From positions 1 to 14,524 of the forward strand of contig JAVYLZ010000015.1 in the NCBI GenBank assembly GCA_038740245.1: a DNA stretch of 14,524 bases. Direction: 5' to 3'. A model generated the notes under the pieces. It was given only the letters and a program-made list of their open reading frames with translations. It made no database searches and was not told where the DNA came from. Within the stretch, counting starts at the first letter, position 1. Every line of letters starts with the position of its first letter. The position numbers were made by a program, and so were the translations under genes. This DNA is from Candidatus Micrarchaeia archaeon. Lineage in GTDB: Archaea; Micrarchaeota; Micrarchaeia; CAILAH01. Below are positions 1 through 14,524 of this stretch, in pieces.

Positions 1-57
1 CCAAAAGCAGATGCTATCAGCCACAACAGCGGTTTGCCTAACGCTGCCGGGCTTCAT
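1..57 (-). CDS. Possible 5' part of a gene running off the left edge (MKPGSVRQTAVVADSICFW...), product unknown
   Basis: Open frame from ATG at 57 to the window edge, with a GGTGG Shine-Dalgarno-like motif just upstream and a TTTATATA box near 81-88 on the minus strand. Alternative ATG at 69. Too short to identify. Confidence 0.35.
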   Translation of the reverse strand, partial: MKPGSVRQTAVVADSICFW

Positions 58-178
58 AACCACCAACATCTGGCTGGCAATATATAAAAACATGCCGCGC
101 TCTAGCAAAAATTTGTGCATATTATCTTTTATTGTCTTGCGCTATAATATTAGCGCTGAAAAGGGATGTGGTGGTGCC

Positions 179-331
179 ATGGCATTTGAAAAAATGATTG
201 TATGCCCCTGCTGCAGGGCTGAGAAGGGGATGGATTTTGTGATTTTTGAAAAAGACGGCGAGTTCCACTGCCCGCACAATCCAGGGCACAAGTTCAAGTT
301 CAACAGCGACGGCCTTATTGTTTTCCTTTAA
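179..331 (+). CDS. Small Zn-ribbon-like protein, 50 aa
   Basis: MAFEKMIVCPCCRAEK...FHCPHNPGHKF contains CxxC plus CxxxxxH metal-binding knuckles. GGTGGTG RBS lies directly before ATG 179. The ORF-track extension to 11 crosses an AT-rich promoter region. Confidence 0.7.
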   Translation: MAFEKMIVCPCCRAEKGMDFVIFEKDGEFHCPHNPGHKFKFNSDGLIVFL

Positions 332-358
332 TTCCATTTCCTGATTTTTCCAAAAAAG

Positions 359-572
359 TGGAGGGGAGGAGATTTATTCGCCACGGATGCCGTGGGTTGC
401 GAAGGGCAGTGCAGGGGACCCTCCGTTTGAACTCCTGAACCCGCTAGGGGACCGGACTTTTTATTTACCAACCTAGCATTTTCGCGGGGCGAAAATAGCT
501 GGGGTTGCGAATGGGGCGGATACACCCCATTCGTCCTAAATCCGGCGCGTTTGACCGCTCCGCCACCCCTCC
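359..572 (-). tRNA. tRNA-Leu(TAG) with two introns: 458-534 (77 nt, position 37/38) and 374-426 (53 nt, T-loop, about 58/59)
   Basis: Spliced product, 84 nt: GGAGGGG TG GCGGAGCGGTCAAACGC G CCGGA TTTAGG^G TCCGG TCCCCTAGCGGGTTC AGGAG TTCAA^AT CTCCT CCCCTCC A. Perfect acceptor, anticodon and T stems, long variable arm, A73, no encoded CCA. Relaxed BHB-like junctions: TTTA/TAAA helix with AA|G bulge, and GTTC/GAAT helix with AA|A bulges. Confidence 0.92.
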
Positions 573-690
573 GAACGAAGTGAGGGGGTGCGGGACATCA
601 GCAAAGCTGATGCTGACCGCCACCCCTCCATAGAGGGCTCCGGCCACTATGGCCCGGTAATTTTTGCCTCGGCAAAAAATACGCGGACCC
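573..690 (-). other. Structured putative 5' leader of tRNA-Leu: hairpin array with a 13-nt direct repeat of the tRNA 5' end
   Basis: ccgccacccctcc occurs at both 560-572 and 617-629. Its imperfect inverted copy gagggggtgcgg is at 582-593. Hairpins catcagc-aaa-gctgatg (596-612) and tttttgcc-tc-ggcaaaaa (661-678). The nearest TATA box is at 712-718. Confidence 0.55.
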
Positions 691-711
691 ATTTCCTTGA
701 ACATTCCAAAC

Positions 712-724
712 TATATAACCTTTC
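712..724. promoter_or_regulatory. BRE/TATA element between divergent tRNA-Leu and nth, possibly bidirectional
   Basis: Minus strand reads GAAAGG-TTATATA. Plus strand reads TATATAA, starting 30 nt before the in-frame ATG at 742. Confidence 0.55.
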
Positions 725-741
725 TAATGAAACGTTTTCCG

Positions 742-1416
742 ATGCTTGGAAACAAAAAGTTTATGGCTGGCCTCCCCAAATGCCTTTCACGAATGGAAAA
801 AATGGCCAAAAAAATGGATGCGCCGGTAATGCGGCTTGAGGGCCATTCAAAGGAAACGCCTTTCAAGATTCTCGTATACACAATGCTCTCTGCGCGCACC
901 AGGGATGAAGCCACTATTGAGGCAGCAAAACGGCTTTTCTCACGGTTTAAGACGGTTAAGCAGATAGCTGAAGCCGATGAGGAGGAATTGCAGGAGCTCA
1001 TACGGCCAGTTGGGTTTTACAAAGAAAAGGCACGGCGCCTCAAGCAGATGTGCGTGCTCCTGCTGGGACGGTTCGGCGGCAAAGTCCCAAAAACACTGGA
1101 TGGCCTAACTTCACTTCCTGGCGTGGGCATCAAGACCGGCAACATTGTGCTCGCGCGGGCGTTTGGCCATAACGTTATCGGCGTTGATACCCACGTGCAT
1201 CGGATAAGCAATCGGCTGGGCCTCGTCAAAACAAAAACCCCGGAGCAAACAAGCGCGCTTCTCAATAAGGGCATCCCAGAAAAATACAGGAGGCGGCTTA
1301 ACAGGATATTTGTGGGGTTTGGGCAAACGATATGCAGGCCGGTTGGGCCAAGGTGCGGCATATGCCCCATTTACGAGATATGCCCGCGCATAGGCGTGCA
1401 TACGAAACATTTATAA
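742..1416 (+). CDS. nth: Endonuclease III (HhH-GPD DNA glycosylase/AP lyase with 4Fe-4S cluster)
   Basis: PFKILVYTMLSARTRD, HhH motif LPGVGIKTG with catalytic Lys, VDTHVHRISNRLG with catalytic Asp, and C-x6-C-x2-C-x5-C (CRPVGPRCGICPIYEIC). Start uncertain (742, 763 or 793). The ORF-track start at 664 overlaps the tRNA leader and promoter. Confidence 0.93.
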   Translation: MLGNKKFMAGLPKCLSRMEKMAKKMDAPVMRLEGHSKETPFKILVYTMLSARTRDEATIEAAKRLFSRFKTVKQIAEADEEELQELIRPVGFYKEKARRLKQMCVLLLGRFGGKVPKTLDGLTSLPGVGIKTGNIVLARAFGHNVIGVDTHVHRISNRLGLVKTKTPEQTSALLNKGIPEKYRRRLNRIFVGFGQTICRPVGPRCGICPIYEICPRIGVHTKHL

Positions 1417-1461
1417 TAATAAAATGAGAAGGACATCTGGTTATTCGGCTGCGGTGAGTGG

Positions 1462-2391
1462 ATGGTTAAAGGTTCTCTTGTCAAAAAGAAGTATGATTTA
1501 AGCCTTGTCCCTGTGCGGAACGACGGTGCCAACGTGGGGCTGCGCAAGTCAATAAAGGAAGACCTGCGCGAGGGCGCAACACACACGGAGATTGCGCTGA
1601 AGCTGCTGAATAATGAGGAGGCAAAGGTGCGCATAAACCCCAAAATACTAACTCCGGACGCAGTCATCGCAAAATTCGTGGCCGAAAACCCTGAGCTTGC
1701 AAAAAACCACAAGGAAGTGCTCGCTGAATCCTCGCGCATAAACTACAGCCTTGATAAGGCGCCCAACCACAAGGCGTTTGCGATATGGGCGCTCGTATCC
1801 TCGCACCTGTTTTACCCTGAGATAAGCGGCAGGCATTTCACCAAGCACCCCACTTTTGAGCACGCCGAGATGGACCTGAAGGAGCTTTACTCAAGCCTTG
1901 GCAAGGTGCTGCAGGGTGAGGACGGGCCGCACATTGACACGATTGCAAAGTTCACTGACAAGATGGCAACTGAGACTGCCACCGTGCGTACAATGCTTGA
2001 TGAGGAAGAGCAGCGTGTCTCAGAGCTTGTGCAGGATGCACGGAAAGTGTGCGACCTTCTGCACGCTGCCGGCTACAAGGCAATAGTGCTTAAGGAAGGC
2101 GAGAAGATTGACCCGCTGGTGCTCAACATCGCAGCCAATTCGGAAGATGAGCGGGCGTTCTTGGTTGTAAAGCCGAGCGGCAAGCGGCTCAAGGTTTCCC
2201 TGAGGGCAGTCAAGGGCAAAATTGGCGCAAACCTGTACCGTGTGCTTAATGAGGAAGAGCGCATTGCGCGCGGCGGCGAAGAGCTTCACGATACGTGGAG
2301 TGGGAGCCAAATCGCGGGCGGTGCACCGCTTGACGGCACGGCAATAAGCTTTGGCAGGCTGGCTGTGGTGCTTTCAAAGCATAAATGCTAA
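1462..2391 (+). CDS. Hypothetical protein, 309 aa, with a DHHA1-like C-terminal domain (possibly a degenerate DHH-family protein)
   Basis: GGTGAG RBS upstream. The C-terminus KVSLR...LYRVLNEEE...WSGSQIAGGAP..GTAIS resembles the DHHA1 S-x-R / GG..AGG pattern. No intact DxD or DHH motif is visible. Confidence 0.6.
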   Translation: MVKGSLVKKKYDLSLVPVRNDGANVGLRKSIKEDLREGATHTEIALKLLNNEEAKVRINPKILTPDAVIAKFVAENPELAKNHKEVLAESSRINYSLDKAPNHKAFAIWALVSSHLFYPEISGRHFTKHPTFEHAEMDLKELYSSLGKVLQGEDGPHIDTIAKFTDKMATETATVRTMLDEEEQRVSELVQDARKVCDLLHAAGYKAIVLKEGEKIDPLVLNIAANSEDERAFLVVKPSGKRLKVSLRAVKGKIGANLYRVLNEEERIARGGEELHDTWSGSQIAGGAPLDGTAISFGRLAVVLSKHKC

Positions 2392-2392
2392 G

Positions 2393-3193
2393 CTAACCCT
2401 TCTTTTCTGGCGCGTGCGCAGGAAGCCGTATTTTGCCCAGAAGCGCGGCCAGTTTTGATATCTCAACTGACTTGCTTTCCACTATTGAGACCTTTGCATC
2501 ATCAAGGCGCATAAGCAGAAATGCAAGGTCCTGCTCCTCCTTTAAGTCGGAGGCAAACTTTGAGAGCACATCAGCACTTAGCCGTGCGCTGCCGCTGCCG
2601 TACGCACCTACCATCAGCACGCGGCGCTCAAGCACGTGCGGGCCCTTGTAAACCTCAAACACCGAGGCCGGCTTCCTGAGCAGTGTGCCTTCCGTCTTTG
2701 GCTCAACTGCCATAAAATCCATGCCAAGGCTGCGCATAAATTCCACGGCTTCGGCGTGCCGCCCCTTTATGCTCGGTGAGGCAATAAATCCCTTGGCCTC
2801 AAACCCGTTCTCAGCCATGTAATCCCTTGCGGCAGTGGACATAAATGCGACCATGGCCTTTGCATTGCAATCCTTGGCAACCATAAAATCCTTGAGGTAT
2901 ATGTACTGGGAGGATTTTGAATAGATGAAATGCCCTACTGCAACCGCATTGCCGGCCATATCCTTGCCGATAATCATGAAATTGATGCTCTTGGTAATCC
3001 CGTAATCACGCGTGTAAGTGAGCCGGTCTATTATCTGGTCGTTTATGAAATTGCGGAGTATGGTGTCGCGCACAATCATGTTCAGCGCGTTTTGCTTGAG
3101 CGTCAGGTTTGAGCTGTCGGTCACCGTGAACGGAGTGACCATATAGCCCTGCGCGAGCGCCTGTGAAGACAGCTCTGCAAGCTCCTGTGACAT
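2393..3193 (-). CDS. Hypothetical protein, 266 aa, possible divergent GNAT-fold acetyltransferase
   Basis: Real start is likely MSQELAEL at 3193, with a TTTATA box at 3216-3221 suggesting a leaderless transcript. FMIIGKD..GNAVAVGHF...YIYLKDFMV and AVEFMRSLGMDF resemble the GNAT beta2-4 strands and motif B. Confidence 0.6.
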   Translation of the reverse strand: MSQELAELSSQALAQGYMVTPFTVTDSSNLTLKQNALNMIVRDTILRNFINDQIIDRLTYTRDYGITKSINFMIIGKDMAGNAVAVGHFIYSKSSQYIYLKDFMVAKDCNAKAMVAFMSTAARDYMAENGFEAKGFIASPSIKGRHAEAVEFMRSLGMDFMAVEPKTEGTLLRKPASVFEVYKGPHVLERRVLMVGAYGSGSARLSADVLSKFASDLKEEQDLAFLLMRLDDAKVSIVESKSVEISKLAALLGKIRLPAHAPEKKG

Positions 3194-3227
3194 GCTAGTA
3201 TATTGGCAGTGTGTGTATAAAAAGGTA

Positions 3228-3555
3228 TAGCCCCGCCAGGATTTCCGACCCTGTAACACACCACTTTTAGGGGGGAGGGTCCCGCACGACACGCATTCGG
3301 CAAAGCCGAATTGTGCCCCATCTTCGCAAAGCGAAGATGATGGGTGGAGGGGATGTGCCCCTCCCATCAGTGTTCGAACCTGGGTCTATGGGTTTCTCTA
3401 ATGTGTTTTCGGGCGAGCCCGAAAACTGCCGGGTTTGTAAGGGCAGGCACTCCATCCCACGGTTTTTGAGCTTGCTCAAAAACTCCCGGGGTTATATGGA
3501 GCGGCAGCCCACTATTTCCAAAGCCCACCATCCTTGGCCACTAGACGACGGGGCT
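3228..3555 (-). tRNA. tRNA-Gln(TTG) with two introns: 3394-3517 (124 nt, 37/38) and 3242-3372 (131 nt, T-loop 59/60)
   Basis: Spliced product, 73 nt: AGCCCCG TC GTCTAGTGGCCAAGGAT G GTGGG CTTTGG^A CCCAT AGAC CCAGG TTCGAA^T CCTGG CGGGGCT A. Archaeal Gln A1-U72 pair. Both junctions form good BHB motifs: CTTT/AGAG with GG|A and AA|A bulges, and TTCG/CGGA with AA|C and AA|T bulges. Confidence 0.95.
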
Positions 3556-3582
3556 ATACAACCCTAATTAGTGCGGAAAAAC

Positions 3583-3590
3583 CATATATA
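3583..3590 (-). promoter_or_regulatory. TATA box of tRNA-Gln
   Basis: TATATATG on the minus strand, about 28-35 nt upstream of tRNA position 1. Confidence 0.5.
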
Positions 3591-3623
3591 CCTGCACAAA
3601 AAGCAGCGCCCACTCCCCAACGG

Positions 3624-4352
3624 TCAGCGGACTTCCTCATAATGCGAATGCGGCCTCCCAAACAGTTCGTACCTGAGGGTGTTTGATGCGTGGAACCCGA
3701 CAAACTTTATGTAGCCCCATTTCTTAAGCCGGCGCACGCTCGTGTAAACGACTGCATCGTTATGGAATGCAAACTTGCCTTTTCCTACAAGGCGCATGCT
3801 TAGATCCCCGTCCTCAAAGGTTACGAGTTTTTCGTTGAACCCGCCAACCTCAAAAAACCTGTCCCTGCGGAATGCGCTGTTTGAGCCTATAAATGCAGGT
3901 TTCCCAAGCAGCAATAGCAATTTCATCCATTTTCTTGTGTAAAGCTTTGCGCCCGTGCTTACCAGCAGGTTTTCATGCCCGCGCAGGCGCTCAAGCGGGA
4001 GTATGGGGCCTGTTGCAGCTATGCAATCTTTATCAGCAAACGCATCATGGTATGCTGCGACAAGTCGCTTTGAGGCAACACTATCGCCGTCTATGAATAT
4101 CAGATGCTTGCCCTTCGCCGCCTTTGCACCGGCATTCCTGCCAACTGCAATCCCCCGCGGGCACAGCACCACTTTATCAGCATATTTCTCTGCAATGTCA
4201 ACCGTGCTATCCGTGCTGTGGCTATCCGCAACAATAACTTCGTATGAGCAATCGGTATCCTGCAGTGCCAACGACTGCAGGCACCGCCCTATCAGCTTTT
4301 CCTCATTGAAAGTCGGGACTATGATGGAGAATTCCGGCAACGCACCCACCAT
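3624..4352 (-). CDS. Glycosyltransferase family 2
   Basis: FSIIVPTFNEE, EVIVADSHSTDST, GRNAGA, FIDGD (DxD), GGFNEKLVTFEDGDL, TSVRR. The ATG overlaps the ferredoxin stop (TGATG). Confidence 0.92.
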   Translation of the reverse strand: MVGALPEFSIIVPTFNEEKLIGRCLQSLALQDTDCSYEVIVADSHSTDSTVDIAEKYADKVVLCPRGIAVGRNAGAKAAKGKHLIFIDGDSVASKRLVAAYHDAFADKDCIAATGPILPLERLRGHENLLVSTGAKLYTRKWMKLLLLLGKPAFIGSNSAFRRDRFFEVGGFNEKLVTFEDGDLSMRLVGKGKFAFHNDAVVYTSVRRLKKWGYIKFVGFHASNTLRYELFGRPHSHYEEVR

Positions 4353-4639
4353 CAATAGACGCTTTCAACCTCAATTGCTCCATCCTTCTCAATTATAACC
4401 TGGCATGCGAGCCGCTTGTCATCCTCTGCACCGAGCATCTCCAGCGTCCTTGCCTCGTTTGGCGTCCTCTTGTTCAGGAACTCCATACCCTTTTTAATGC
4501 TCACAAGGCACGTGCCGCACCGGCCATCCGAGCACGCAAAGTGCACGCTGGCACCCTGCTCCTCAATCACCTTCTTGAGCGGTGTGCCCACAGGGACTTC
4601 CACTTCAATGTTATCTCCTGGAAACCTAACTTTTGCCAT
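4352..4639 (-). CDS. 2Fe-2S ferredoxin, 95 aa
   Basis: FACSDGRCGTC (C-x4-C-x2-C) followed by RLACQ. Confidence 0.92.
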   Translation of the reverse strand: MAKVRFPGDNIEVEVPVGTPLKKVIEEQGASVHFACSDGRCGTCLVSIKKGMEFLNKRTPNEARTLEMLGAEDDKRLACQVIIEKDGAIEVESVY

Positions 4640-4692
4640 CTAAATCAACCAAAGATATTATGAAAAGAGGTTTTTTAAGCATAAAATTGGAA

Positions 4693-5048
4693 AGCCCCCG
4701 ATGGGATTTTTGGGCAGCCAAAAGGGTTTTCTTTTGAACCCGAGGGCCTTTTCTTTTCCAAAAGAAAAGGGGCTCGAACCCACGACCTCTCGCTATAGGG
4801 GCGTATCCATCCCCTGTATCCCGGTAGTTTTCCGGCAAGGCCGAAAACAGCGCGGGGGCAGAATGGACTGCATTCCCTATTGTTGAGACGCACATCTTTG
4901 CAAGGCAAGAGTGCGCCAATTTCGCGCAGGGCGAAATTGAAGGGGGAAAGGGGGTTGCACGCAAAGCGTGCAAATTGTCGGCGAAGCCGACAAATGCCCC
5001 TTTCACCCTTCTTACAAGGCGAGCGCTCTACCACTGAGCTACGGAGGC
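4693..5048 (-). tRNA. tRNA-Thr(TGT) with two introns: 4795-5012 (218 nt, anticodon loop) and about 4707-4772 (66 nt, T-loop 59/60)
   Basis: Spliced product, 72 nt: GCCTCCG TA GCTC AGTGGTA GAGC G CTCGC CTTGTA^A GCGAG AGGTC GTGGG TTCGAG^T CCCAT CGGGGGC T. All four stems pair and U73 is typical of archaeal Thr. Exact splice points are uncertain by 1-2 nt because the BHB motifs are imperfect. Confidence 0.88.
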
Positions 5049-5072
5049 CTTTGTGGATTTTATGCAAGTAAT

Positions 5073-5080
5073 CTTTATAT
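5073..5080 (-). promoter_or_regulatory. TATA box of tRNA-Thr
   Basis: ATATAAAG on the minus strand, about 25-32 nt upstream of tRNA position 1. Confidence 0.45.
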
Positions 5081-5114
5081 CCTATCTGCATATTGGGAAT
5101 GCAAAAAAGGGGAT

Positions 5115-6152
5115 TTAAAACATCGTTGTAAACATCAGGTCAAGAGCGGCCATCACTATGAAAAGCACACCAAGCGCCGCAATAAGGAAGAACGGCAGTA
5201 TTTTGAGGCCGTTCCTTGCCGAGCCGGTCTGAATGACTGCAAGTATGAAAGACGCAAACACCGATGTTATTGTTATTGCAAGTATTGAGAACAGCTTAAA
5301 GTCATCTGCGGTTATCTGCGGTGGCGAGAACCCGATTATCCCAAAGCCGCCCTGCGAAACCTCAGGGACGTTTGCCCATACCGCGCCCAGCGTGCCAATG
5401 AGCTTGGATGAGACAGCAAACAGGATAGGGGCACCCACTATCGCCGCAAATGATATGAATATGACATACATCAGCATCGATGAGCTGGCCTCCTTGTACA
5501 TTATCTGCATCCTGCGCAGGTCTGCGGCCGTGCGCTCAAGTATCTCACCAATCTCGCCACCTGATGCAATGCCGAACTTCAGGACGCTGACCGTCCTCTG
5601 CAGGTATTTTGAGTTGAACCTGTTTGACAGGTATGTGAGCGAATCCGAGATGGACTCGCCGCTGAACGTCCTCTTCATGGCAATCTGGACTTCCTTTGCG
5701 AGAATGCCAAACTCAGGGGTGGCCGCACGCCAGAGCGCCTGCTCAACTGGCAGGCCCGCACGCACGTTTGCCGCGGCCAGCTGCAGGAAATCCGGAAGCA
5801 CTGCCTCCAGCTCACGCTTGCGCGCGTCAATCTGGACGAGAAAATATGCGTACAGAGCTATAGCCACTGCAAGCAGTGTTGCAACTTCAACTGCAACGAG
5901 CATTACAATTGCACCGATAACCTCGGCAAGCGGTGTGCCCATGCCTGCAAACGGTGCTGAAAACGCCTGCAGCCACGACGTTGAGAAAATTGATACAATG
6001 AATACGACAAGCCCCAGCGCGAGCGAGTAGGCAACCGTTGTGCCAAGTAGGGCTTCCGCCTCTCCCATAACACCGGCAGTGTCAATAAACCTGCCAACAC
6101 TGCGGACAATGCCTCGCGGCAGCAAGTGACCCATCTTTTCAAACGTGCTCAT
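5115..6152 (-). CDS. Type II secretion F-domain / TadC-FlaJ-like pilus assembly membrane platform protein
   Basis: ELEAVLPDFLQLAAANVRAGLPVEQAL...EFGILAKEV...SGGEIGEILE is a T2SSF signature, with multiple transmembrane segments. Confidence 0.88.
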   Translation of the reverse strand: MSTFEKMGHLLPRGIVRSVGRFIDTAGVMGEAEALLGTTVAYSLALGLVVFIVSIFSTSWLQAFSAPFAGMGTPLAEVIGAIVMLVAVEVATLLAVAIALYAYFLVQIDARKRELEAVLPDFLQLAAANVRAGLPVEQALWRAATPEFGILAKEVQIAMKRTFSGESISDSLTYLSNRFNSKYLQRTVSVLKFGIASGGEIGEILERTAADLRRMQIMYKEASSSMLMYVIFISFAAIVGAPILFAVSSKLIGTLGAVWANVPEVSQGGFGIIGFSPPQITADDFKLFSILAITITSVFASFILAVIQTGSARNGLKILPFFLIAALGVLFIVMAALDLMFTTMF

Positions 6153-7000
6153 ACCTCAAACCTCGGCCTTGAACTCTCAATCATCGTCAAGAATGTGTAT
6201 TGCATCAGCAGCACCAGCAGCAGTGCGCCAAACAGGAATGCCGGGCTCAGCACCACACCGGTGAACGTAAATATCGTAACGAACAGCGTGACCCCCAGTG
6301 AAGGCATAATTATGCCGAACAGCATGTAAAACATGCCAAGGGGGTTAAGCTTCTGGCCGTATGCCTTTATCTCAATGAGCTGCTCCTGCGACATCTGGTC
6401 AAGTATGGTTTCCAGTGCAACCGCAACATCTGAGCCGGAGCGTATTGAGTTTACAATCTGCAGCACGAGGCGCTTGAATGGCTTTGAGGGGGTTTCCTCG
6501 GCCACATCCTCCATCGCAACATCAAGCGGGACACCAAGGTTTGTCTTGTCAACTATCTCCTTGAACGCCTTGCTCGCCTCGCCGTAATCCGAGGTCAGGT
6601 GCACTATTGCATCGTAAAGCGGTATGCCGCCGCGCACCTCAATGAGCAGCTGCCTGCCGGCAAACAGCAGGTCCTTGTCAATGTTGCGCTGGCGCGAGAG
6701 CATAACCACATCAACACGCCTCATCATAAACAGGAACACCACAACTGCAAGCAACGGCACCATTATGACGAGCCAGAGCAGGCTGCCGTTTGAAACTACC
6801 ATAAACAGCGCAATGCAAACAGAAAGTATGAGCGTAAGAAGCGCTGAGACAACAAGCACATCCTTGATATACTCGTTTTGGGTTTTCTTCATCTTTGCCA
6901 TGCGCAGCTTTTTGCGCAGGTCCGGGAAGAATGAGCCCAGGTACTCAACTAATGCATCAAGTGCAGAGCCTTCCTTCTTGCCTTTGCTTGCTTCAGGCAT
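6149..7000 (-). CDS. Type II secretion F-domain / TadC-like pilus assembly membrane protein
   Basis: IDKDLLFAGRQLLIEVRGGIPLYDAI...YGEASKAF...SGSDVAVALE is a T2SSF signature. ATGA overlap with the downstream paralog. Confidence 0.88.
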   Translation of the reverse strand: MPEASKGKKEGSALDALVEYLGSFFPDLRKKLRMAKMKKTQNEYIKDVLVVSALLTLILSVCIALFMVVSNGSLLWLVIMVPLLAVVVFLFMMRRVDVVMLSRQRNIDKDLLFAGRQLLIEVRGGIPLYDAIVHLTSDYGEASKAFKEIVDKTNLGVPLDVAMEDVAEETPSKPFKRLVLQIVNSIRSGSDVAVALETILDQMSQEQLIEIKAYGQKLNPLGMFYMLFGIIMPSLGVTLFVTIFTFTGVVLSPAFLFGALLLVLLMQYTFLTMIESSRPRFEV

Positions 7001-7032
7001 AAAACCACATTAGGGGATTTGCCGGGAAGTAA

Positions 7033-7040
7033 TTTAAATA
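7033..7040 (+). promoter_or_regulatory. TATA box for leaderless hisS, in the divergent spacer with the tadC-like pair
   Basis: TTTAAATA begins 28 nt before ATG 7061. Confidence 0.5.
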
Positions 7041-7060
7041 TGTTGTTATTAACTTATCGT

Positions 7061-8320
7061 ATGCCTCCCAAGTTTTCGCGTGCGCGCGGCATGCGCGACA
7101 TACTGCCTGAGGATGAGATAATATACAAGCGGCTTATTTCTGCGATTGAGAATGCATACCGGGCATACGGGTACGACCCTGTTTCACAGCCCGCAATTGA
7201 GCGGCTTGAGACACTGGAGGCAAAAAGCGGTGAGGGCATAACCTCGGAGATATTCAGAATTGATGACGGGGAACTTGGCCTGCGGTTTGACCTTACGGTA
7301 TCGCTTGCACGCCTGTATGCCGAGAACGCGGGGCTTGCACTCCCATTCAAAAGATACTGCATAGAGAAGGTGTGGCGCAGGGAGGAGCCGCAGTACGGGA
7401 GATACCGCGAATTCCTGCAAGCCGATGCAGACGTGCTGGGTGCACCGGGGGTTGAGTGCGAAGCCGAGCTGATTGCGTGCGCCTGCGACGTGCTTGGCAG
7501 TGTGGGCATAGAAAATTATGTGGTGCTAATAAACAGCCGCAAGCTGATGACCGGCGTGCTCCGGCATATCGGCGTGCCTTCCGATAAGATTGAAACTGCG
7601 ATACGCATAATTGACAAGCTGGACAAGAAAAGCGAGGCGGAGGTTGCGGCCGAGCTTTCCGTAAACGGGCTTGGCAACGGCAAGGAGATAATAGCGGCAT
7701 TCAAGCACGACCTTGAATACTATGAAAAGATTCCCGAGTGTGCCGAAGGTGCCGCAGATTTGCGCAGGCTTTTTGCACTGCTCAACGAGTACGGCCTCAA
7801 GAATTGCAGGTTTGAGCCCAGCATTGCGCGGGGGCTGGGGTATTACACAGGCACCGTTTACGAGATAAAAAGCGATGACCCCCAGCTGGGCACCATTGCA
7901 GCTGGCGGCAGGTATGACACGCTTATAGGCATTTATGCAGGCAGGGATGTGCCTGCGGCGGGGATATCTTTTGGTATTGACAGGATAGCAACACTGCTCA
8001 AGAAAAACGCCTCAGTGAAAACGCTAACAGATATAGTGCTCGTTAATGTAACGCCTAAGAATTACGGTGCGTGCATTAGAATGGCAAAGATGCTCCGCAA
8101 AAAAGGTGTTGCGGTCCGCATAGATCTTATGGGTAGGAACATGCGCAAGCAGCTTGAGTATGCCGCGTCACTGGGCGCACGATTTGTTGGGATAATAGGG
8201 GATAAAGAGGCCTCCGAGGGAAAAATGATGCTCAAGGACCTTTCAAGCGGCGGGCAGCTTGAAACTGATGCTGAAACTGCAGCAGAAAAAATAATTGCGG
8301 CGCGGACCATTAATTTTTAG
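7061..8320 (+). CDS. hisS: Histidine--tRNA ligase
   Basis: RGMRD, LRFDLT, WRREEPQYGRYREFLQAD (motif 2), RGLGYYTG, AAGGRYD, GISFGIDRI (motif 3), plus a C-terminal anticodon-binding domain. Start set to MPPKFSRARG. Confidence 0.97.
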   Translation: MPPKFSRARGMRDILPEDEIIYKRLISAIENAYRAYGYDPVSQPAIERLETLEAKSGEGITSEIFRIDDGELGLRFDLTVSLARLYAENAGLALPFKRYCIEKVWRREEPQYGRYREFLQADADVLGAPGVECEAELIACACDVLGSVGIENYVVLINSRKLMTGVLRHIGVPSDKIETAIRIIDKLDKKSEAEVAAELSVNGLGNGKEIIAAFKHDLEYYEKIPECAEGAADLRRLFALLNEYGLKNCRFEPSIARGLGYYTGTVYEIKSDDPQLGTIAAGGRYDTLIGIYAGRDVPAAGISFGIDRIATLLKKNASVKTLTDIVLVNVTPKNYGACIRMAKMLRKKGVAVRIDLMGRNMRKQLEYAASLGARFVGIIGDKEASEGKMMLKDLSSGGQLETDAETAAEKIIAARTINF

Positions 8321-8799
8321 GGGGATACGCGCACTGATGCCGTGCCAGTTGTGGTGTAAGTTTTACCGTCAAGGTTATACTCCATCACAACGCGCGCCTT
8401 CTCAATTGTGCCTACACGGAACCGTGAAGTGTCAACGTTGGTCACAACGATTTGTATGCCAGCGTTTGGACCCACCTCCCCGCCTATAGTGTAAGGTATC
8501 TCCTGGCCGGTGCTGAGGAAGGTTACTTTGCCCTGCGGACGGAGTATCTCATAGCCAAGACCGTTATGGAGAGTAAGCGTAAATGTGCGGCTGCTTTGGC
8601 TAAGCTGCATTGACTTGCACTGGAGGCTTGGCTGGAACATGCACTCCTCATTCATGTATTTCTGTGGGTCAAACACGCCAACGGAATACAGCACTGACAG
8701 CACAACCACTATGGCGATAAGCGCCCAGCCGTAAGTCATAAGGTATTCCATTGCGGCCTGCCCGCGCAATCCCCGTGAAGCCATGAATGGAATACGCAT
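8317..8799 (-). CDS. Archaeal type IV pilin-like protein with class III signal peptide
   Basis: LRG^QAAMEYLMTYGWALIAIVVVLSVL has a basic residue, a G/Q cleavage site, E at +5 and a hydrophobic helix. A Cys pair (C-x7-C) and a beta-rich domain follow. Start could be 8784. Confidence 0.85.
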   Translation of the reverse strand: MRIPFMASRGLRGQAAMEYLMTYGWALIAIVVVLSVLYSVGVFDPQKYMNEECMFQPSLQCKSMQLSQSSRTFTLTLHNGLGYEILRPQGKVTFLSTGQEIPYTIGGEVGPNAGIQIVVTNVDTSRFRVGTIEKARVVMEYNLDGKTYTTTGTASVRVSP

Positions 8800-8901
8800 T
8801 ATAAGTTAATAAATGTGGCGGCAGGCAGCGGGTTGGGGGCCGCACGCACCCCTTCTTGTAAGGTTAATAAAGGTGCGAGTTGAATATGCTTTGGTGGTGC
8901 A

Positions 8902-9195
8902 ATGGCATCTGTGCTGGGCAAGGAAATCAAACGCATACCAATTTACCAGGACACCGGCCCTGTAACCAAAGGGGAGCTTGTTGTTATGGAAGGGGGCATC
9001 GCGCTTGTAAACGGCAACCAGCGCCTTGAATTGCCGCGCAGCATGATTGAGGATGTGCATGTTGTCTCCCCAATGCCTTTGCTGCGGCATAAGATTGCGC
9101 TCAGCTACGTTGACTATATGGGTGCGCATACCACTGTTGAAATTGTAGTCCCGGAGAGGGATTACAGGCATATTGTGCAATGCATAAGAGGGTGA
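8902..9195 (+). CDS. Hypothetical protein, 97 aa (possible PH-like fold)
   Basis: GGTGGTG RBS. Beta-rich sequence with a C-terminal helix (GELVVMEGGIAL...LELPRSMIEDV...). Lies 4 nt upstream of the CBS gene. Confidence 0.65.
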   Translation: MASVLGKEIKRIPIYQDTGPVTKGELVVMEGGIALVNGNQRLELPRSMIEDVHVVSPMPLLRHKIALSYVDYMGAHTTVEIVVPERDYRHIVQCIRG

Positions 9196-9199
9196 AAGC

Positions 9200-10294
9200 A
9201 TGGAGTATGAGAGCGTAAGCCTTATGGATGCAAACGAGCCGGTATCTGCGGCCGTCGCAAAAATAATGCGCGGTGAGCCCTGCGTAATCGTCCTGAAAAA
9301 CGGGCACTATTACGGGATATTTGATGAGCTTGATGTGCGTGAGGTGGCTGACCCGTCCCGTGAAAAAGTTGGCAATCTGGCTGAGCGTGCACCGGTGATA
9401 ACAGAGAACATGGACACGCTTACCGCTGTTAGAATGTTCCTTGACGGGCGGTTTAAAACACTGCCCGTTGTCACTGAAGACGGGTACAAGGTTATCCGCA
9501 GGAACAAGCTGCTCAAGTATCTCCACAAGAACAAGATGCTGCCCAAGGCAACTGTGGGCGAGGTAATGACCATGCCCGTGCTCACGCTTGAGAGCAACGA
9601 GCCGGTCGGGCACGCGCGCGAGGTGATGCGCAAGAACAACGTGCGCAGGGTGGTTGTGACCGAGAATGGCAAGATTGCGGGCGTGCTTGCGATGCGCGAC
9701 ATAATTTCAATTGCCGAGGTGCCAACCGGCAGGCTGCCCTTCGTAAAGGAAAAGCACAGGTCGGATACGCTCCCAATAAAGAACTATATGAGGGAGGAAG
9801 TGTATATGCTTCCGCCGACCGCAAGCGTCTCAGAGGCGGTGCAACTGCTTCAGGACAGCGATGCGTCATCGGTTGTTGTTGCGGAGAAAGGCAGGCCGCT
9901 CGGCATTGTAAGCGTGCGTGACCTGTTTGAGGTGATCGCAACGCAAAAGAGCCAGCTGCCAATCTATTTCAGCGGTATGGACAGGCGGGATGAGGAGTAT
10001 ATGCCAGAAGTCCGCTCAACAATTGAGAGGGCTGTGGAAAAACTTGAGGACATTGCAAGGATTGAATACGTTGCGGTCCACTACAAAAAGCAGCGGTATA
10101 CGGGCCTGCGCAGCATGTACGAAGTCAAGGTGCGTGCAAAAAGCGACAGCATAGTCTCAGTATCCGCTTCAGACTGGGACATACGCAGCGCAACACAGAA
10201 GGCTGCACGCGAGCTTCTTGCAGTGTTCAAGAAGCAGGCCGGCAGGGCCCGCGCAAAAACCAATGCATGGGAGCGCGACCGCCGCCGTGAATAA
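9200..10294 (+). CDS. Four-CBS-domain protein with C-terminal HPF/RaiA-like domain; putative archaeal ribosome hibernation factor
   Basis: Two CBS pairs (e.g. VGEVMTMPVLTL...GKIAGVLAMRDI and IKNYMREEV...GRPLGIVSVRDL) followed by a beta-alpha-beta-beta-beta-alpha-like segment (PIYFSG...IERAVEKL...YEVKVR...SASDWDIRSATQKAARELL). Confidence 0.8.
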   Translation: MEYESVSLMDANEPVSAAVAKIMRGEPCVIVLKNGHYYGIFDELDVREVADPSREKVGNLAERAPVITENMDTLTAVRMFLDGRFKTLPVVTEDGYKVIRRNKLLKYLHKNKMLPKATVGEVMTMPVLTLESNEPVGHAREVMRKNNVRRVVVTENGKIAGVLAMRDIISIAEVPTGRLPFVKEKHRSDTLPIKNYMREEVYMLPPTASVSEAVQLLQDSDASSVVVAEKGRPLGIVSVRDLFEVIATQKSQLPIYFSGMDRRDEEYMPEVRSTIERAVEKLEDIARIEYVAVHYKKQRYTGLRSMYEVKVRAKSDSIVSVSASDWDIRSATQKAARELLAVFKKQAGRARAKTNAWERDRRRE

Positions 10295-10318
10295 GCACTT
10301 TTTTCTTAACTTCCCATT

Positions 10319-10753
10319 TTATTGGAGCACTGAAACCTCAACTGCCTCAACGGACTTGCTAATCCTTATGCCGCGCACGCCCGCACCCTCAAAAGCAACC
10401 TCCCCTGCCTTTTGGTCGCCCTTCTTTAGCTTGACCTGGCTCTTCAGGTTAGTAACACGGATTACGGATGTGCCGTCTGCAAGCGTGTATACCAGGTGGC
10501 CGGTATCCTTGACATAGGAGAGGTTTCCGGCCGGGAAGTACAGGTAAAGCGTTGTTTCGGTGCCAGCACCGTATGCAGAGGCAGCCTCAAACGCCCCCGC
10601 AAGGCGGGACAGCGAGCGCTCAGTTTGCGATACCTCGGAATACCTGTTGAAATCCACTAGAAGCGGGTAGACCGCATATATAAGCGCGAAAATTAGCACC
10701 ACTGCAAAGCCAATCACAATGAGCGTTTCAACGCTTGCCTGTGCACGGGACAT
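10319..10753 (-). CDS. Pilin-like protein with class III signal peptide
   Basis: MSRA^QASVETLIVIGFAVVLIFALI has an RAQ cleavage motif, E at +5 and a hydrophobic stretch. Confidence 0.82.
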   Translation of the reverse strand: MSRAQASVETLIVIGFAVVLIFALIYAVYPLLVDFNRYSEVSQTERSLSRLAGAFEAASAYGAGTETTLYLYFPAGNLSYVKDTGHLVYTLADGTSVIRVTNLKSQVKLKKGDQKAGEVAFEGAGVRGIRISKSVEAVEVSVLQ

Positions 10754-10826
10754 AGTGCTATATTCCGCATATCAAAATAAAAAGGTTTCAGGATGGAAAT
10801 ACCTGTTGCCGAAAGGTGTTTTGCTC

Positions 10827-13181
10827 ATGGAAAGGTATGACAGGAAGATTGAGGAACGGATCGCCGAAGAATGGGTCCGTGATGAAATATACAAGTTCAA
10901 CGAGGGGGCCGGCCCGCTTTACATCATAGACACACCGCCCCCGTTTACCTCAGGGAAACTGCACATGGGCCACGTGCTCAGTTATTCACTGTTTGATTTT
11001 GCCGCGCGGTTCAAGCGGATGACAGGCTACTCAGTGCTTTACCCGCAGGGGTGGGACACGCAGGGGTTCCCGACGGAAGTTAAGGTTGAGGCCAAGTTCG
11101 GGAAGGGCCTGCCGCGGGAGCAGTTCGTTGCGCACTGTGTTGAGTGGACCAAGGAGTATATTGCCACTATGCGTGCGCAGATGCAACGGATGGGCTTTTC
11201 AGCAGACTGGTCCCGTGAATACATCACAATGTCCCCTGAATACCATAAAAAGGTGCAAAAATCGCTGCTGATTATGCACAGGGACGGCCACGTGTACAAG
11301 GGGTCGCACCCAACGTTCTGGTGCACTGAATGCGTGAGCGCAATCGCCAAATCTGAGACGGAGGATGCTGAGAGGGATACAAAGCTCAACCATCTTGTAT
11401 TCACGCTGGAATCCGGCGAGCCGCTCATAATCGCGACCACGCGGCCAGAATACCTGCACGCGTGCGTTGCCGTGCTCGTGCATCCTGATGATGAAAGGTA
11501 TAGGGGCATTGTTGGAAAAAAGATTGCTACACCTCTGGGAAAGCAAGTCCCAATACTTTCAGATGTTGATGTTGACAAGGAATTCGGCACTGGGGCAGTG
11601 ATGGTGTGCACATTCGGCGACAAGCAGGATGTGGTGTGGGCATACCGGCATAACCTCCCCATAATTGATGCCATTGATGAAGTTGGCAGGCTAAAAAATG
11701 CGGGTGAGTTTACCGGCCTGCGCGTGGCCGCGGCACGCGAGAAGGTGCTTGAGAAGCTTAATGCGGAGGGCAAGGTGGTTAAGGTTGAGCCGCTCAGGCA
11801 AGTTGTTAAGGTGCACGACAGGTGCAAAAAGGCGGTGGAGCTTAAGGTTTCTGACCAGTGGTTCTGCAGGCTTACGGGCTACCAGCGGGACATCATAAAA
11901 GCGGCGGACCAGATGAAGTGGATACCTGAATTCACAAAGCAGTACCTGGTTGACTGGACCAACTTCGTTGAGTGGGACTGGGTTATATCGCGGCAGAGGC
12001 ATTTCGGAACACCGCTGCCGTTTTACGTATGCAAAAAATGCGGGGCAAGCAAGCCTGCCGATGAAAATGAGCTGCCTTTCAGGCCTGAGAACGCACGCAG
12101 GGATGTTAAATGCGCGTGCGGGGAACTGATGGAGCCGGAGCAGAGCACGTGCGACTGCTGGGTGGACTCAAGCATCACGCCACTTGTGATTGCCGGGTGG
12201 CCTGAGAAAGGATGGGAAAAATATTACCCGTCTACACTGAGGCCGCAGGGCATTGAGATTATCCGCTCATGGGCGTTTTACACAATATACAGGTGCCTGC
12301 TGCTTACCGGGAAGCCGCCGTTTAAGGAAATGCTGCTGAACGGCAACGTGCTCGGGCCGGACAACCGCAAGATGAGCAAGTCGCTGGGCAATATCGTGGA
12401 CCCGGGCGAGCTCGTTGAGCAGTATTCAGCTGATGCGGTGCGCCTCTGGGTTGCGCTGAGCGGTGCGTCCACACGCGACAGGCCGTTCAACTACCAGGAG
12501 ATGAAATTTGCGCAGTCATTCATAAACAAGGTGTGGAACGCCGCCAACTTCGTTGAGATGTCAACAAAGGATTACACGGCCGGCGAAACTGCACCCAACA
12601 TAGCAGATAAATGGATTCTCTCACGTCTTGAAAATGCAAAACGCAAGGCCATCTCCGCATATAATGAGTATGACTACTTCAACGCGATGAACGCTATGCA
12701 GAACTTCTTCTGGCATGATTTCTGCGACAATTACCTTGAGTTTGCCAAGCACAGGATTTACGGGCAGGATGAAAAATCCAAGAGGGCTGCACAGGAGACG
12801 CTCTACACCGTGCTAAACGAATCGCTCAAGCTGATGGCGCCGGTGATGTCCTTCACAACAGAAGCCATATACAAGGAACTCTTTGCTTCAAGGGAAGGCA
12901 CGAAGAGCATACACATGTGCAGAATGCCCGCTGAAAAGCCAGAGAGGATGAATGATGAGGCGGAGGCACTTGGCGATACACTCGTGGAAGTCGTCTCAGC
13001 GCTCCGCAAGTACAAGAGCACCCGCAAGATGTCATTAAAAGAAAGGATACCCTCAATTAAAATCTCGGTGCCGGGTGAGAGAATCGGGCATGCACTTGCA
13101 CTCGCAGAAGATGTAAAGAGTATAGGCCTTGTTGACAGCATTGATTTTGTTGAAGGCGGTCAGGTCGCGGTGGTTGAGTAG
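10827..13181 (+). CDS. valS: Valine--tRNA ligase (archaeal type)
   Basis: IDTPPPFTSGKLHMGH (HIGH), GWDTQGFPTE, ATTRPE editing motif, GTGAVMVCTFGD, DWVISRQR, KMSKSLGN. Start set to MERYDRKIE, with AGGTG upstream. Confidence 0.96.
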   Translation: MERYDRKIEERIAEEWVRDEIYKFNEGAGPLYIIDTPPPFTSGKLHMGHVLSYSLFDFAARFKRMTGYSVLYPQGWDTQGFPTEVKVEAKFGKGLPREQFVAHCVEWTKEYIATMRAQMQRMGFSADWSREYITMSPEYHKKVQKSLLIMHRDGHVYKGSHPTFWCTECVSAIAKSETEDAERDTKLNHLVFTLESGEPLIIATTRPEYLHACVAVLVHPDDERYRGIVGKKIATPLGKQVPILSDVDVDKEFGTGAVMVCTFGDKQDVVWAYRHNLPIIDAIDEVGRLKNAGEFTGLRVAAAREKVLEKLNAEGKVVKVEPLRQVVKVHDRCKKAVELKVSDQWFCRLTGYQRDIIKAADQMKWIPEFTKQYLVDWTNFVEWDWVISRQRHFGTPLPFYVCKKCGASKPADENELPFRPENARRDVKCACGELMEPEQSTCDCWVDSSITPLVIAGWPEKGWEKYYPSTLRPQGIEIIRSWAFYTIYRCLLLTGKPPFKEMLLNGNVLGPDNRKMSKSLGNIVDPGELVEQYSADAVRLWVALSGASTRDRPFNYQEMKFAQSFINKVWNAANFVEMSTKDYTAGETAPNIADKWILSRLENAKRKAISAYNEYDYFNAMNAMQNFFWHDFCDNYLEFAKHRIYGQDEKSKRAAQETLYTVLNESLKLMAPVMSFTTEAIYKELFASREGTKSIHMCRMPAEKPERMNDEAEALGDTLVEVVSALRKYKSTRKMSLKERIPSIKISVPGERIGHALALAEDVKSIGLVDSIDFVEGGQVAVVE

Positions 13182-13250
13182 GGGGTCTGCATTGCAGGCT
13201 GGGCCCCGTACATCCGCTCATGCTCATAGCATCCAATGCAATGTGGTTAG

Positions 13251-14336
13251 ATGATTCCCGGGATACACATAAACACGTTCGCTGAAATGCTGCTGCACCT
13301 TGGGCTCAGCGGCCTGCCGGGAATTGTGCTGCTCTACATATTTTACGGGATTGCGGCTGCGCTTGACTCAATTTATTCCGTCGCGCTCAACATACCTGAC
13401 GGTGCAACAGGGATAGCACCGGCAGCATCGCAGAGGATGGCTGCGCAGGGGATGCTCGGGCGGGCGGTCTATATGTATCTTGCGGGTGGCGTTATAGGGG
13501 CGGTTGCATCGCTTCTCCTCATCCCAATCATTATGTTCGCATTCCCAACCATACAGCCGGCAGTACAGGAGAATATGTTCATTGCGCTTGCGCTCGCAAC
13601 CACATATTTCCTGCTCAAGGATTTCAAGTGGGAATGCCTTGCAGTATTCATTGCATCAGGCATTTTTGGCGTATGGGCGTTTGGGGCGGGGGAGAACCTG
13701 ATATTCCCGATGTTCGTGGGGTTCTTTACGCTGCCTATGCTGATGGTGCGCACCGCAAGCGCACCCGTTGAGCCGCAGCACAGGGTAAAGGTTGGCCTGC
13801 GCGTCCCGCTCATATCTGCAATTGCAACTGCGTGCGCCTATCTCATTCCCGGCATGGCCACACCCACTATAATAATTGTGCTTGCAGGGGCGTTCGCATC
13901 AATACGCGAGGATGAGTTTGTGGCTGCTCTGGGTGCGATAAATGCCTCAAACATCGCCTACTCAATACTTATGACGGATATAATCGGCAAGGCGCGCACG
14001 GGTGTGGCGATTGTGGCGCTTGAGATGCACCACGCACTGTTCGGCGAGCACCTGCTTGCCGCACTTGCCGGAGTTATTGCATTCTCGGCCGCGGCATTCC
14101 TGCTTTCACGGGCGATACCTTCCGCAGTTTCGTTCTTCTCAACATTCAACAACCCCGTGTTAAAGCTCATAATCGCAATCTACCTATGTGTGCTCATCTG
14201 GCTGCTTACCGGACCGCCCGGAATTCTTGTTGCGGGGGTTGCATGCGTGCTCGGCACCGCCACGCTGCTCATAGGCGCACACCGCACATCACTTATGGGC
14301 AGCATTATCGTTGGTGCACTGCTTTATTACGCATAA
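13251..14336 (+). CDS. TctA/DUF112-like (tripartite tricarboxylate transporter permease family) membrane protein
   Basis: IPGIHINT, LNIPD....IAPA.QRM..QG.LG.A and GKARTG motifs typical of archaeal TctA-like proteins. Many transmembrane segments. Confidence 0.78.
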   Translation: MIPGIHINTFAEMLLHLGLSGLPGIVLLYIFYGIAAALDSIYSVALNIPDGATGIAPAASQRMAAQGMLGRAVYMYLAGGVIGAVASLLLIPIIMFAFPTIQPAVQENMFIALALATTYFLLKDFKWECLAVFIASGIFGVWAFGAGENLIFPMFVGFFTLPMLMVRTASAPVEPQHRVKVGLRVPLISAIATACAYLIPGMATPTIIIVLAGAFASIREDEFVAALGAINASNIAYSILMTDIIGKARTGVAIVALEMHHALFGEHLLAALAGVIAFSAAAFLLSRAIPSAVSFFSTFNNPVLKLIIAIYLCVLIWLLTGPPGILVAGVACVLGTATLLIGAHRTSLMGSIIVGALLYYA

Positions 14337-14361
14337 TAATTTTAGCTTGGATATCCTAGCA

Positions 14362-14524
14362 ATGGATAAGCAGGTGCTTAAGGGGACCGCAATACTGGTT
14401 GCGGCACTGATATTGCCCATCATCATATTCCTATTCTGGGGTGATATCGCCGCATATGACTGGGCGGCGCTAGGCTACTTTGGAGTGTTTGCAGTAATGC
14501 TCATAACCAGCGCGACAATAATAC
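14362..14524 (+). CDS. Partial DedA/VTT (SNARE-associated)-like membrane protein running off the right edge
   Basis: MDKQVLKGTAILVAALILPIIIFLFWGDIAAYDWAALGYFGVFAVMLITSATII. The LGYxGVF...SATII pattern matches the N-terminus of DedA-like proteins. Confidence 0.65.
   Translation, partial: MDKQVLKGTAILVAALILPIIIFLFWGDIAAYDWAALGYFGVFAVMLITSATII

Follow-up and report, generated by a model that had tools for sequence, protein, structure and literature searches.

Transposed families of tRNA introns were reportedly described in Thermoproteales by Fujishima et al. in 2010. In a 2014 review, archaeal tRNA introns span 11-129 nt, intron sharing among Thermoproteales genes is treated as known, and the mechanism of transposition is called unknown (PMC4090602); the gain of archaeal tRNA introns is still an open question. 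T-loop introns at position 59/60 are known from ARMAN-2 (PMC3239211), and for one Caldiarchaeum locus a mobile-element model has been put forward (PMC3293823). In bacteria, GTAG tags and GC-flanked short loops define the repetitive extragenic palindromic (REP) families (PMC3733652). Here we describe a stretch of 14,524 nt from a Candidatus Micrarchaeia archaeon (GenBank assembly GCA_038740245.1, contig JAVYLZ010000015.1, positions 1 to 14,524), hereafter the window, in which three tRNA genes carry introns that contain a recurring two-hairpin unit of ~55 nt. It is probable, in our judgement, that this unit is a non-autonomous palindromic DNA repeat that, in this Micrarchaeota family, has colonised those segments of tRNA genes which are transcribed and then removed.

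The introns resemble those of the ARMAN-2 multi-intron tRNAs in their 59/60 T-loop positions, in the presence of both strict and relaxed bulge-helix-bulge (BHB) motifs, in the company of tRNA-Ile(UAU), an ARMAN trait that is present in the source genome, and in a splicing endonuclease whose homologue is full-length in relatives; the text passages on ARMAN-2 describe no repeat family within its introns (PMC3239211). In contrast to the introns of Thermoproteales, they are much longer (to 287 nt in the source genome versus 11-129 nt, PMC4090602) and are mosaics of sub-intron units, which are also found in leaders, trailers and a coding start. With the bacterial GTAG REPs and REPINs the unit shares the nature of a short extragenic palindrome, stems of 6-13 bp, GC-flanked loops of 2-4 nt, perhaps a GTAG-like tag, and the occurrence of dimers, tandem clusters and some in-frame copies (PMC3733652), and the GC-TT-GC apex is common to Pseudomonas REP cores and the unit hairpins (PMC3116915). 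It differs from bacterial REPs in the failure to find a RAYT in the family genomes, in a tag that reads GTAA in 8 of 19 copies and has its last base paired in the stem, in a second fixed hairpin, in its archaeal host, and in its copies, which number tens and are concentrated at tRNA genes, not hundreds that follow open reading frames (ORFs). Mitochondrial hairpin and double-hairpin elements are likewise small, lack a known transposase, invade non-coding DNA and vary between close relatives; the likeness is by description only, as those elements are organellar and are not removed by a tRNA splicing endonuclease (PMC2800124). By analogy, the unit may work like a REP or an organellar hairpin repeat inside BHB introns; membership in a REP family is not supported, no RAYT having been found. 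The literature search returned no account of archaeal tRNA introns built from a family of palindromic repeats, although subscription journals and supplements could contain one. A defined recurring unit, present inside and outside introns and subject to fast turnover in one genus, makes intron gain testable, and the hairpin repeat is a concrete lead on the origin and growth of archaeal tRNA introns.

The two-hairpin unit and its distribution

The source assembly (G000; 688 kb, 41 contigs, 81% complete, with the window as contig C15) was studied together with eight relatives, among them G001, G002, G003, G006 and G007, as a family set of nine genomes that are 61-93% complete. The original prediction had named ten GC-apex hairpins in the window. 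All ten are present at the positions given, distributed over three minus-strand tRNA genes and one leader; nine are perfect, with stems of 7-10 bp, and the tenth (4827-4848) has one extra base in its 5' arm. Their absence from coding regions, remarked on in the original prediction, is confirmed for the window, with 0 hairpins in its 12,494 coding nt.

The census of G000 counted perfect stems of at least 7 bp with a loop of 2-5 nt and a GC..GC apex, and its tRNA-intron mask took in three unparsed loci whole. It revealed 24 hairpins in 5,913 nt of tRNA introns (4.1/kb), 12 in 10,240 nt of tRNA flanks (1.2/kb), 10 in 45,361 nt of other intergenic DNA (0.22/kb) and 31 in 623,437 nt of ORFs (0.05/kb), which makes tRNA introns about 80-fold denser than ORFs. 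Shuffled controls agree, and the anticipated genome-wide enrichment therefore holds: the six window introns contain 8 such hairpins against a mean of 0.02 and a maximum of 1 in 1000 dinucleotide shuffles, and the 57 introns of the genome contain 21 against 0.2, with a maximum of 3 in 200 shuffles. The GC..GC apex itself recurs, being present in 36 of 66 tRNA-linked hairpins and 31 of 162 coding hairpins (p=3e-7). A motif search of the G000 assembly for rRNA found none.

BLAST and inspection of all loci reveal a unit of ~55 nt, composed of a GC..GC-apex hairpin with T-rich/A-rich feet, a linker with a run of G, and a second G/C hairpin, the outer base pairs of which covary and the loop of which can accommodate further hairpins. 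The module had been conceived as a single hairpin shared by all ten sites, and this was only partly right, as the recurring unit is larger. The hairpins starting at 478, 3405, 3462 and 4827, and perhaps 4917, are followed by the linker and the second hairpin, whereas those at 596, 3295, 3319, 4955 and 4975 stand without them. Of the 57 introns of G000, 32 (1,998 of 5,273 nt) have a 14-mer in common with the intron of another tRNA gene. In the window, the unit of the tRNA-Leu anticodon intron has a 32-nt match to a tRNA-Val trailer on contig C2, the second unit of the Leu leader matches the tRNA-Leu(UAA) leader on contig C16, the T-loop intron of tRNA-Leu(UAG) and the anticodon intron of its CAG paralogue have a block in common, and the first ~74 nt of the outer Thr-UGU unit are common to the Met-CAU intron. 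A leader on contig C10 is near-identical to the window Leu leader with its inner loop inverted.

A regular expression for the unit gives 23 matches in G000 and 11 in the loci of the relatives. The units are located in introns (in both orientations), leaders, trailers, between genes, at the 3' end of the RNase P RNA and at the start of a phosphomutase gene (G000:C29, about 1,846-1,960), where the hairpin unit forms an in-frame N-terminal extension. The same gene has a plain 4-residue start in G002, G006 and G007, and three tandem related copies in G003. Accumulation in RNA that is removed during processing thus describes the introns, leaders and trailers that hold the unit, but the in-frame copy shows that it is not confined there. 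The linker pattern was matched in 6 of the 9 family genomes and in none of 32 further genomes searched within the class. In a metagenome scan, three contigs contributed six loci at which the unit forms head-to-tail arrays, located upstream of tRNA genes and also upstream of genes that, by our own reading, resemble ribosomal proteins. Five bacterial matches in the genome-collection scan are without the second hairpin and were taken as chance. Among viral contigs, neither of two unit patterns had a match, the first-hairpin pattern had 1 and an 18-nt hairpin 11, and only one record has a mosaic context. This 424-kb viral record (L162, 2,440-2,610) holds an intergenic mosaic of GC-apex hairpins with the same first hairpin and linker start, without the second hairpin, and is a single lead only. 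We also note free intergenic clusters of the same hairpin modules away from parsed tRNA genes (G000:C3, about 32,250-32,500; C6, about 4,830-5,080).

The prediction of a REP-like miniature palindromic element that adds to intron growth stands in its structural part, namely the GC-NN-GC apex and a GTA(G/A) tetranucleotide at the hairpin foot, and lacks its enzyme, as no Y1/RAYT gene was found in the family genomes. On the opposite strand at the hairpin foot, 19 units of G000 carry GTAG (4), GCAG (2), GTAA (8) or another tag (5), with the last base in the stem; the metagenome copies carry GTAG in 18 of 18, under a search pattern that favoured GTAG.

The loops had been predicted to be purine-rich on the template strand. 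This is observed in 8 of the 9 perfect window loops but not outside the window, where the loops of the rest of G000 and of the relatives' tRNA loci are pyrimidine-rich on the RNA strand in 23 cases, purine-rich in 24 and tied in 4; the window bias is a local run of reversed copies, and the loops follow the polarity of the unit and not transcription. In unit orientation, GNA/GNNA loops occur 9 times among the 23 G000 matches and 6 times among the 11 matches of the relatives (15 against 1 of the reverse class), a count in which two G000 matches look spurious and two hairpins are entered in both orientations. GNA, GNNA and gCNNGc are stable DNA loops (PMC10085684), and the idea of a stable DNA mini-hairpin fits that part of the family; taken over all hairpins, AAA/TTT is the most frequent loop.

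Intron anatomy and predicted processing

The features of the window are collected in Table 1. By their anatomy the inserts are BHB introns, and they are predicted to be spliced. The central helix has 4 of 4 base pairs in five of the six window introns; the anticodon intron of tRNA-Thr scores 1 of 4 directly and fits only as two stacked units. At least 3 of 4 base pairs are formed in 26 of 31 anticodon introns of G000 and in 79 of 372 shifted registers, and the helix varies with the anticodon. Over six genomes the figure is 81 of 93 anticodon introns; a mis-parsed 'Phe-AAA' of G001 was left out of the six-genome helix, processing-site and loop counts. Among the T-loop introns of G000, the best fit is 59/60 in 23 of 26, 58/59 in two and 56/57 in one. 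Introns interrupt 36 of the 39 parsed tRNA genes of G000; the median length of the 57 is 74 nt, and 14 are longer than 129 nt.

Table 1. Coordinates of tRNA genes, introns and hairpin units in the window
Feature	Position	Strand	Description
tRNA-Leu(UAG) gene	359..572	-	exons 572-535, 457-427, 373-359; cloverleaf parse
T-loop intron of tRNA-Leu	374..426	-	58/59, 53 nt, relaxed BHB, central helix 4/4
Anticodon intron of tRNA-Leu	458..534	-	37/38, 77 nt, helix 4/4; mostly one reversed two-hairpin unit
Two-hairpin unit in Leu intron	478..533	+	GC-apex hairpin 478-496, linker, second hairpin up to 5' splice junction
tRNA-Leu leader segment	573..629	-	opens with 13-nt copy of tRNA 5' end (629-617); contains hairpin 596-612
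Second two-hairpin unit, Leu leader	630..681	-	ends at duplicated tRNA 5' end; from sequence
tRNA-Gln(UUG) gene	3228..3555	-	exons 3555-3518, 3393-3373, 3241-3228; cloverleaf parse
T-loop intron of tRNA-Gln	3242..3372	-	59/60, 131 nt, strict BHB, helix 4/4, h2 3 bp; hairpins 3295-3311, 3319-3339
Anticodon intron of tRNA-Gln	3394..3517	-	37/38, 124 nt, strict BHB; hairpins 3405-3426 and 3462-3483 in two reversed units arranged head to tail
tRNA-Thr(UGU) gene	4693..5048	-	exons 5048-5013, 4794-4776, 4709-4693; cloverleaf parse
T-loop intron of tRNA-Thr	4710..4775	-	best BHB at 56/57, 66 nt
Putative inner (3') intron unit, tRNA-Thr	4795..4872	-	37/38, 78 nt; ends in forward two-hairpin unit (hairpin 4827-4848)
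Putative outer (5') intron unit, tRNA-Thr	4873..5012	-	37/38, 140 nt; hairpins 4917-4939, 4955-4973, 4975-4993

The segment upstream of tRNA-Leu, with its duplicated tRNA 5' end, is taken as a leader rather than a D-arm intron, as no register gave a full BHB. Across six genomes, 12 anticodon introns fail the direct BHB test. Seven of these, Thr-UGU among them, can be read as a stacked pair of units, in which the 3' unit has its own BHB and its removal restores a helix of 3-4 bp for the 5' unit; the candidate internal junction ends in GGAA in six of the seven, and no tandem solution was found for the other 5 of the 12. In shuffling tests, stacking is well supported for Asn (equalled by 2-4 of 300 shuffles) but only weakly for Thr-UGU of the window (109 of 300), and a truncated Ile-GAU gene likewise fits stacking (22 of 300). 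The predicted fold of Thr-UGU displays the inner helix-bulge-helix, and its anticodon intron may consist of stacked units of 78 and 140 nt, an assignment that is individually weak. Nested or stacked pre-tRNAs with multiple introns are said to have been described in Crenarchaeota by Sugahara in 2007 and Tocchini-Valentini in 2009, the first intron having to leave before the next BHB forms. Unlike those, the putative stacked 3' unit here would be a repeat copy of about 40-190 nt.

A splicing endonuclease of ~390 aa is encoded in 8 of 8 family relatives, and that of one relative is a full-length match to the ARMAN-2 structure 4FZ2 (E 4.5e-125). Read together with tRNA-Ile(UAU), these endonucleases agree with a micrarchaeotal host. 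RtcB is present in 5 of 5 genomes examined, G000 included. The RtcB of G002 (C49, 39,632-42,307) is a 965-aa frame in two pieces, which suggests an inserted domain such as an intein. RNase P RNA was matched in 9 of 9 family genomes and the HARP family in 0 of 9, and leader hairpins as a substitute for RNase P were thereby ruled out. The survival of inserts would be due to splicing by the broad-specificity epsilon-2 endonuclease and RtcB, while those in leaders would be removed by RNase P and those in trailers by 3' trimming.

Predicted folds of the pre-tRNAs keep the acceptor stem and pack the introns into local hairpins. This is what would be expected if the stems were selected structures, which keep very long introns compact, allowing the BHB and cloverleaf to form at high temperature, or block virus integration at tRNA genes, the similarity among introns being due to transposition of the Thermoproteales type. 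The sequencing runs that best match this DNA are hot-spring runs, and hairpins in the leaders of Cys, Phe and Ser genes are retained from genus to genus, both in line with selection. However, intron content is almost wholly replaced between species of one genus, the exons of which differ by 0-4 nt, relatives have short or no introns at the same sites, and identical units lie outside RNA genes; we regard selected structure as the least probable of the accounts considered here.

Intron turnover and the origin of the unit

Comparison of orthologous introns had been proposed to separate indels of whole modules from point mutation. Between G000 and G001, whose tRNA exons differ by 0-4 nt, both modes occur. 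Orthologous introns of Ile-UAU, Lys-CUU and Trp are point-mutated, Glu-CUC has a block duplication of +80 nt, the Gln-UUG anticodon intron measures 124 nt in G000 and 250 nt in G001, where ~104 nt are duplicated in tandem, and some introns are wholly replaced. Intron presence differs at 5 of 33 shared sites; the T-loop intron site of tRNA-Leu(UAG), for one, is without an intron in the G001 orthologue. A 'T-loop intron' of G001 tRNA-Asp is a 3' duplication and was not counted as an intron. The T-loop introns of the Thr genes are crossed between the two genomes, with identities of 90% and 80% crosswise and 21-25% within a genome; that of the window Thr-UGU (66 nt) is 90% identical to the Thr-CGU T-loop intron of G001. 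Moreover, the ferredoxin-linked Thr gene (window 4693-5048; L003, L005) is UGU in G000, G001 and G003 and CGU in G002 and G007. The crossed introns and the UGU/CGU swap are as expected from conversion between near-identical exons. In G000 itself, the Thr-UGU and Thr-CGU anticodon introns are 92% identical over 233 nt, all 218 nt of the Thr-UGU insert being shared, and Thr-CGU has a further block of 71 nt. Blocks are thus gained, lost, duplicated and exchanged among tRNA genes.

Tandem repeats of 41-104 nt and blocks flanked by direct repeats are common around these tRNA genes. Together with the loop inversion between paralogous leaders, the exchange of Thr introns and the failure to find a transposase, they favour an explanation without any mobile element, in which replication slippage and template switching make hairpins, tRNA gene conversion homogenises them, and the unit is the most stable survivor. 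This explanation meets difficulty in copies that lack tRNA homology (the phosphomutase start in G000, with independent-looking tandem copies in G003, the RNase P 3' end, and sites upstream of ribosomal-protein-like genes) and in the conserved tag at the hairpin foot, and we hold it to be rather unlikely.

For the colonising repeat, the two orientations in introns, the inverted loop between paralogous leaders and the in-frame phosphomutase copy point to copying at the DNA level. The first insertion step would most likely occur at that level as well. An HUH-type single-strand enzyme acting in trans is the lead guess for it, tentative and somewhat short of even, and enzyme-free replication and recombination is about equally likely. 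Subsequently, a unit landing at an occupied 37/38 junction would give stacked introns that are removed 3'-first, ectopic recombination between tRNA exons that are nearly identical may spread long introns, and introns may grow by slippage at short direct repeats.

The ends of the second hairpin suggest a further lead, short of demonstrated targeting. It ends exactly at tRNA +1 in 11 of 122 leaders, with 1 match in total at offsets -25 to -7 and a background of 73 in 195,986 positions, and in 10 of 61 T-loop introns and 9 of 94 anticodon introns its first base coincides with that of the intron. In addition, duplications of the tRNA 3' end begin at position 59-60 in 9 of 12 cases, four of these in genes without a T-loop intron; a 13th row was an assembly-gap artefact and was dropped. 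An RNA route, in which excised intron RNA is joined by the splicing ligase to processed tRNA ends (+1, 37/38, 59/60) and then copied to DNA, would account for these positions. It is quite improbable, given the two orientations of the unit in introns, a reverse transcriptase in only 1 of 9 genomes and loop classes that fit DNA better than RNA. The metagenome units end 3 nt before +1, which also speaks against processing-site targeting, splice-site adjacency can be selected, and leaders are inherited, so that the loci are not independent. A bolder version of the DNA repeat makes it an archaeal miniature element aimed at tRNA processing sites (+1, 37/38, 59/60) by a single-strand nuclease or the splicing machinery and an active source of new introns, with the position-60 duplications as proto-introns and the stacked units as successive insertions; this we consider doubtful.

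Two classes of element were set aside on the features tested. A DDE-type miniature inverted-repeat transposable element is ruled out by the asymmetric unit and by flanking duplications that are 8 to over 50 nt or absent, not of fixed length. An integrative element at tRNA 3' ends is ruled out, as the 3' duplications enclose only about 45-150 nt and the tyrosine recombinase domain PF00589 was found in 0 of 5 genomes.

Several observations weigh against the colonising repeat, and the recombinase result just given is one of them. The proposed search for an HUH Y1/RAYT gene was negative, with the Y1 transposase domain (PF01797) in 0 of the 9 family genomes, in assemblies 61-93% complete and with a control positive in 6 of 14, and the scarcity of reverse transcriptase belongs here too. 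Splicing of the introns is predicted from their anatomy, no RNA run was listed among the sequencing runs that match this DNA, and the splicing endonuclease gene was not found in the 81% complete G000 assembly. Several orthologous introns differ chiefly by substitutions; strain-level contigs (three runs of one study, at low depth) display only point or 1-nt changes in the window introns and no gain or loss of modules, the strain joints at 398-534 and 5008-4941 being probably paralogous tRNA genes that were not used. The comparison yielded no clean pair of an empty and a filled site in which the boundaries of the unit are exact. The hairpin copies are interrelated, so their counts overstate independence, and loop bias was not seen under a cruder orientation rule (12:7:3, p=0.36), the stricter one having been picked post hoc.

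A search for Y2 enzymes gave 0 of 9 family genomes, with the positive control also silent, and is uninformative. The sole reverse transcriptase match is a 442-aa frame (G007:C26, 45,301-45,948; L168). A TnpB/Cas12f domain is encoded in 2 of 9 family genomes. In G000 (C1, about 58,700-61,000; L169), one such domain, a Cas12f1/TnpB zinc ribbon, lies in a 629-aa frame that is followed by at least 2 copies of a 37-nt CRISPR-like repeat; the locus resembles type V-F systems.

tRNA detection and gene context

ARAGORN and Rfam at default settings detected 0 of the 3 window tRNA genes, and relaxed ARAGORN gave mostly noise on the window. Genome-wide, standard tRNA finders returned 18 matches, compared with at least 39 tRNA genes in G000. 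A purpose-written multi-exon cloverleaf parser, applied to 41 candidate T-loops in G000, parsed 39, among which the window genes are the sole ones for the anticodons of Leu-UAG, Gln-UUG and Thr-UGU. Each has an insert in the anticodon loop and one in the T-loop, of 77/53 (Leu), 124/131 (Gln) and 218/66 nt (Thr), and joining of the exons yields mature tRNAs of 84, 73 and 72 nt, respectively, with a complete cloverleaf and a valid anticodon. Genes with such introns escape standard tRNA finders, which may explain tRNAs missing from DPANN assemblies. Besides its anticodon intron, tRNA-Val(UAC) (G000:C24, 5,594-5,766) has an insert of ~50 nt in the D-loop.

The flanking genes of the window include an HhH-GPD glycosylase, a family-2 glycosyltransferase, a ferredoxin, HisRS and ValRS. 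Two long ORFs at 1462-2391 and 2393-3190 (309 and about 265 aa) are without a Pfam match, as is a short Cys-rich ORF (CxxC ... CxH) at 179-331, directly downstream of tRNA-Leu on the other strand. A single TATA-like stretch at about 700-725, between the divergent tRNA-Leu and HhH-GPD genes, may serve both and is kept in G001.

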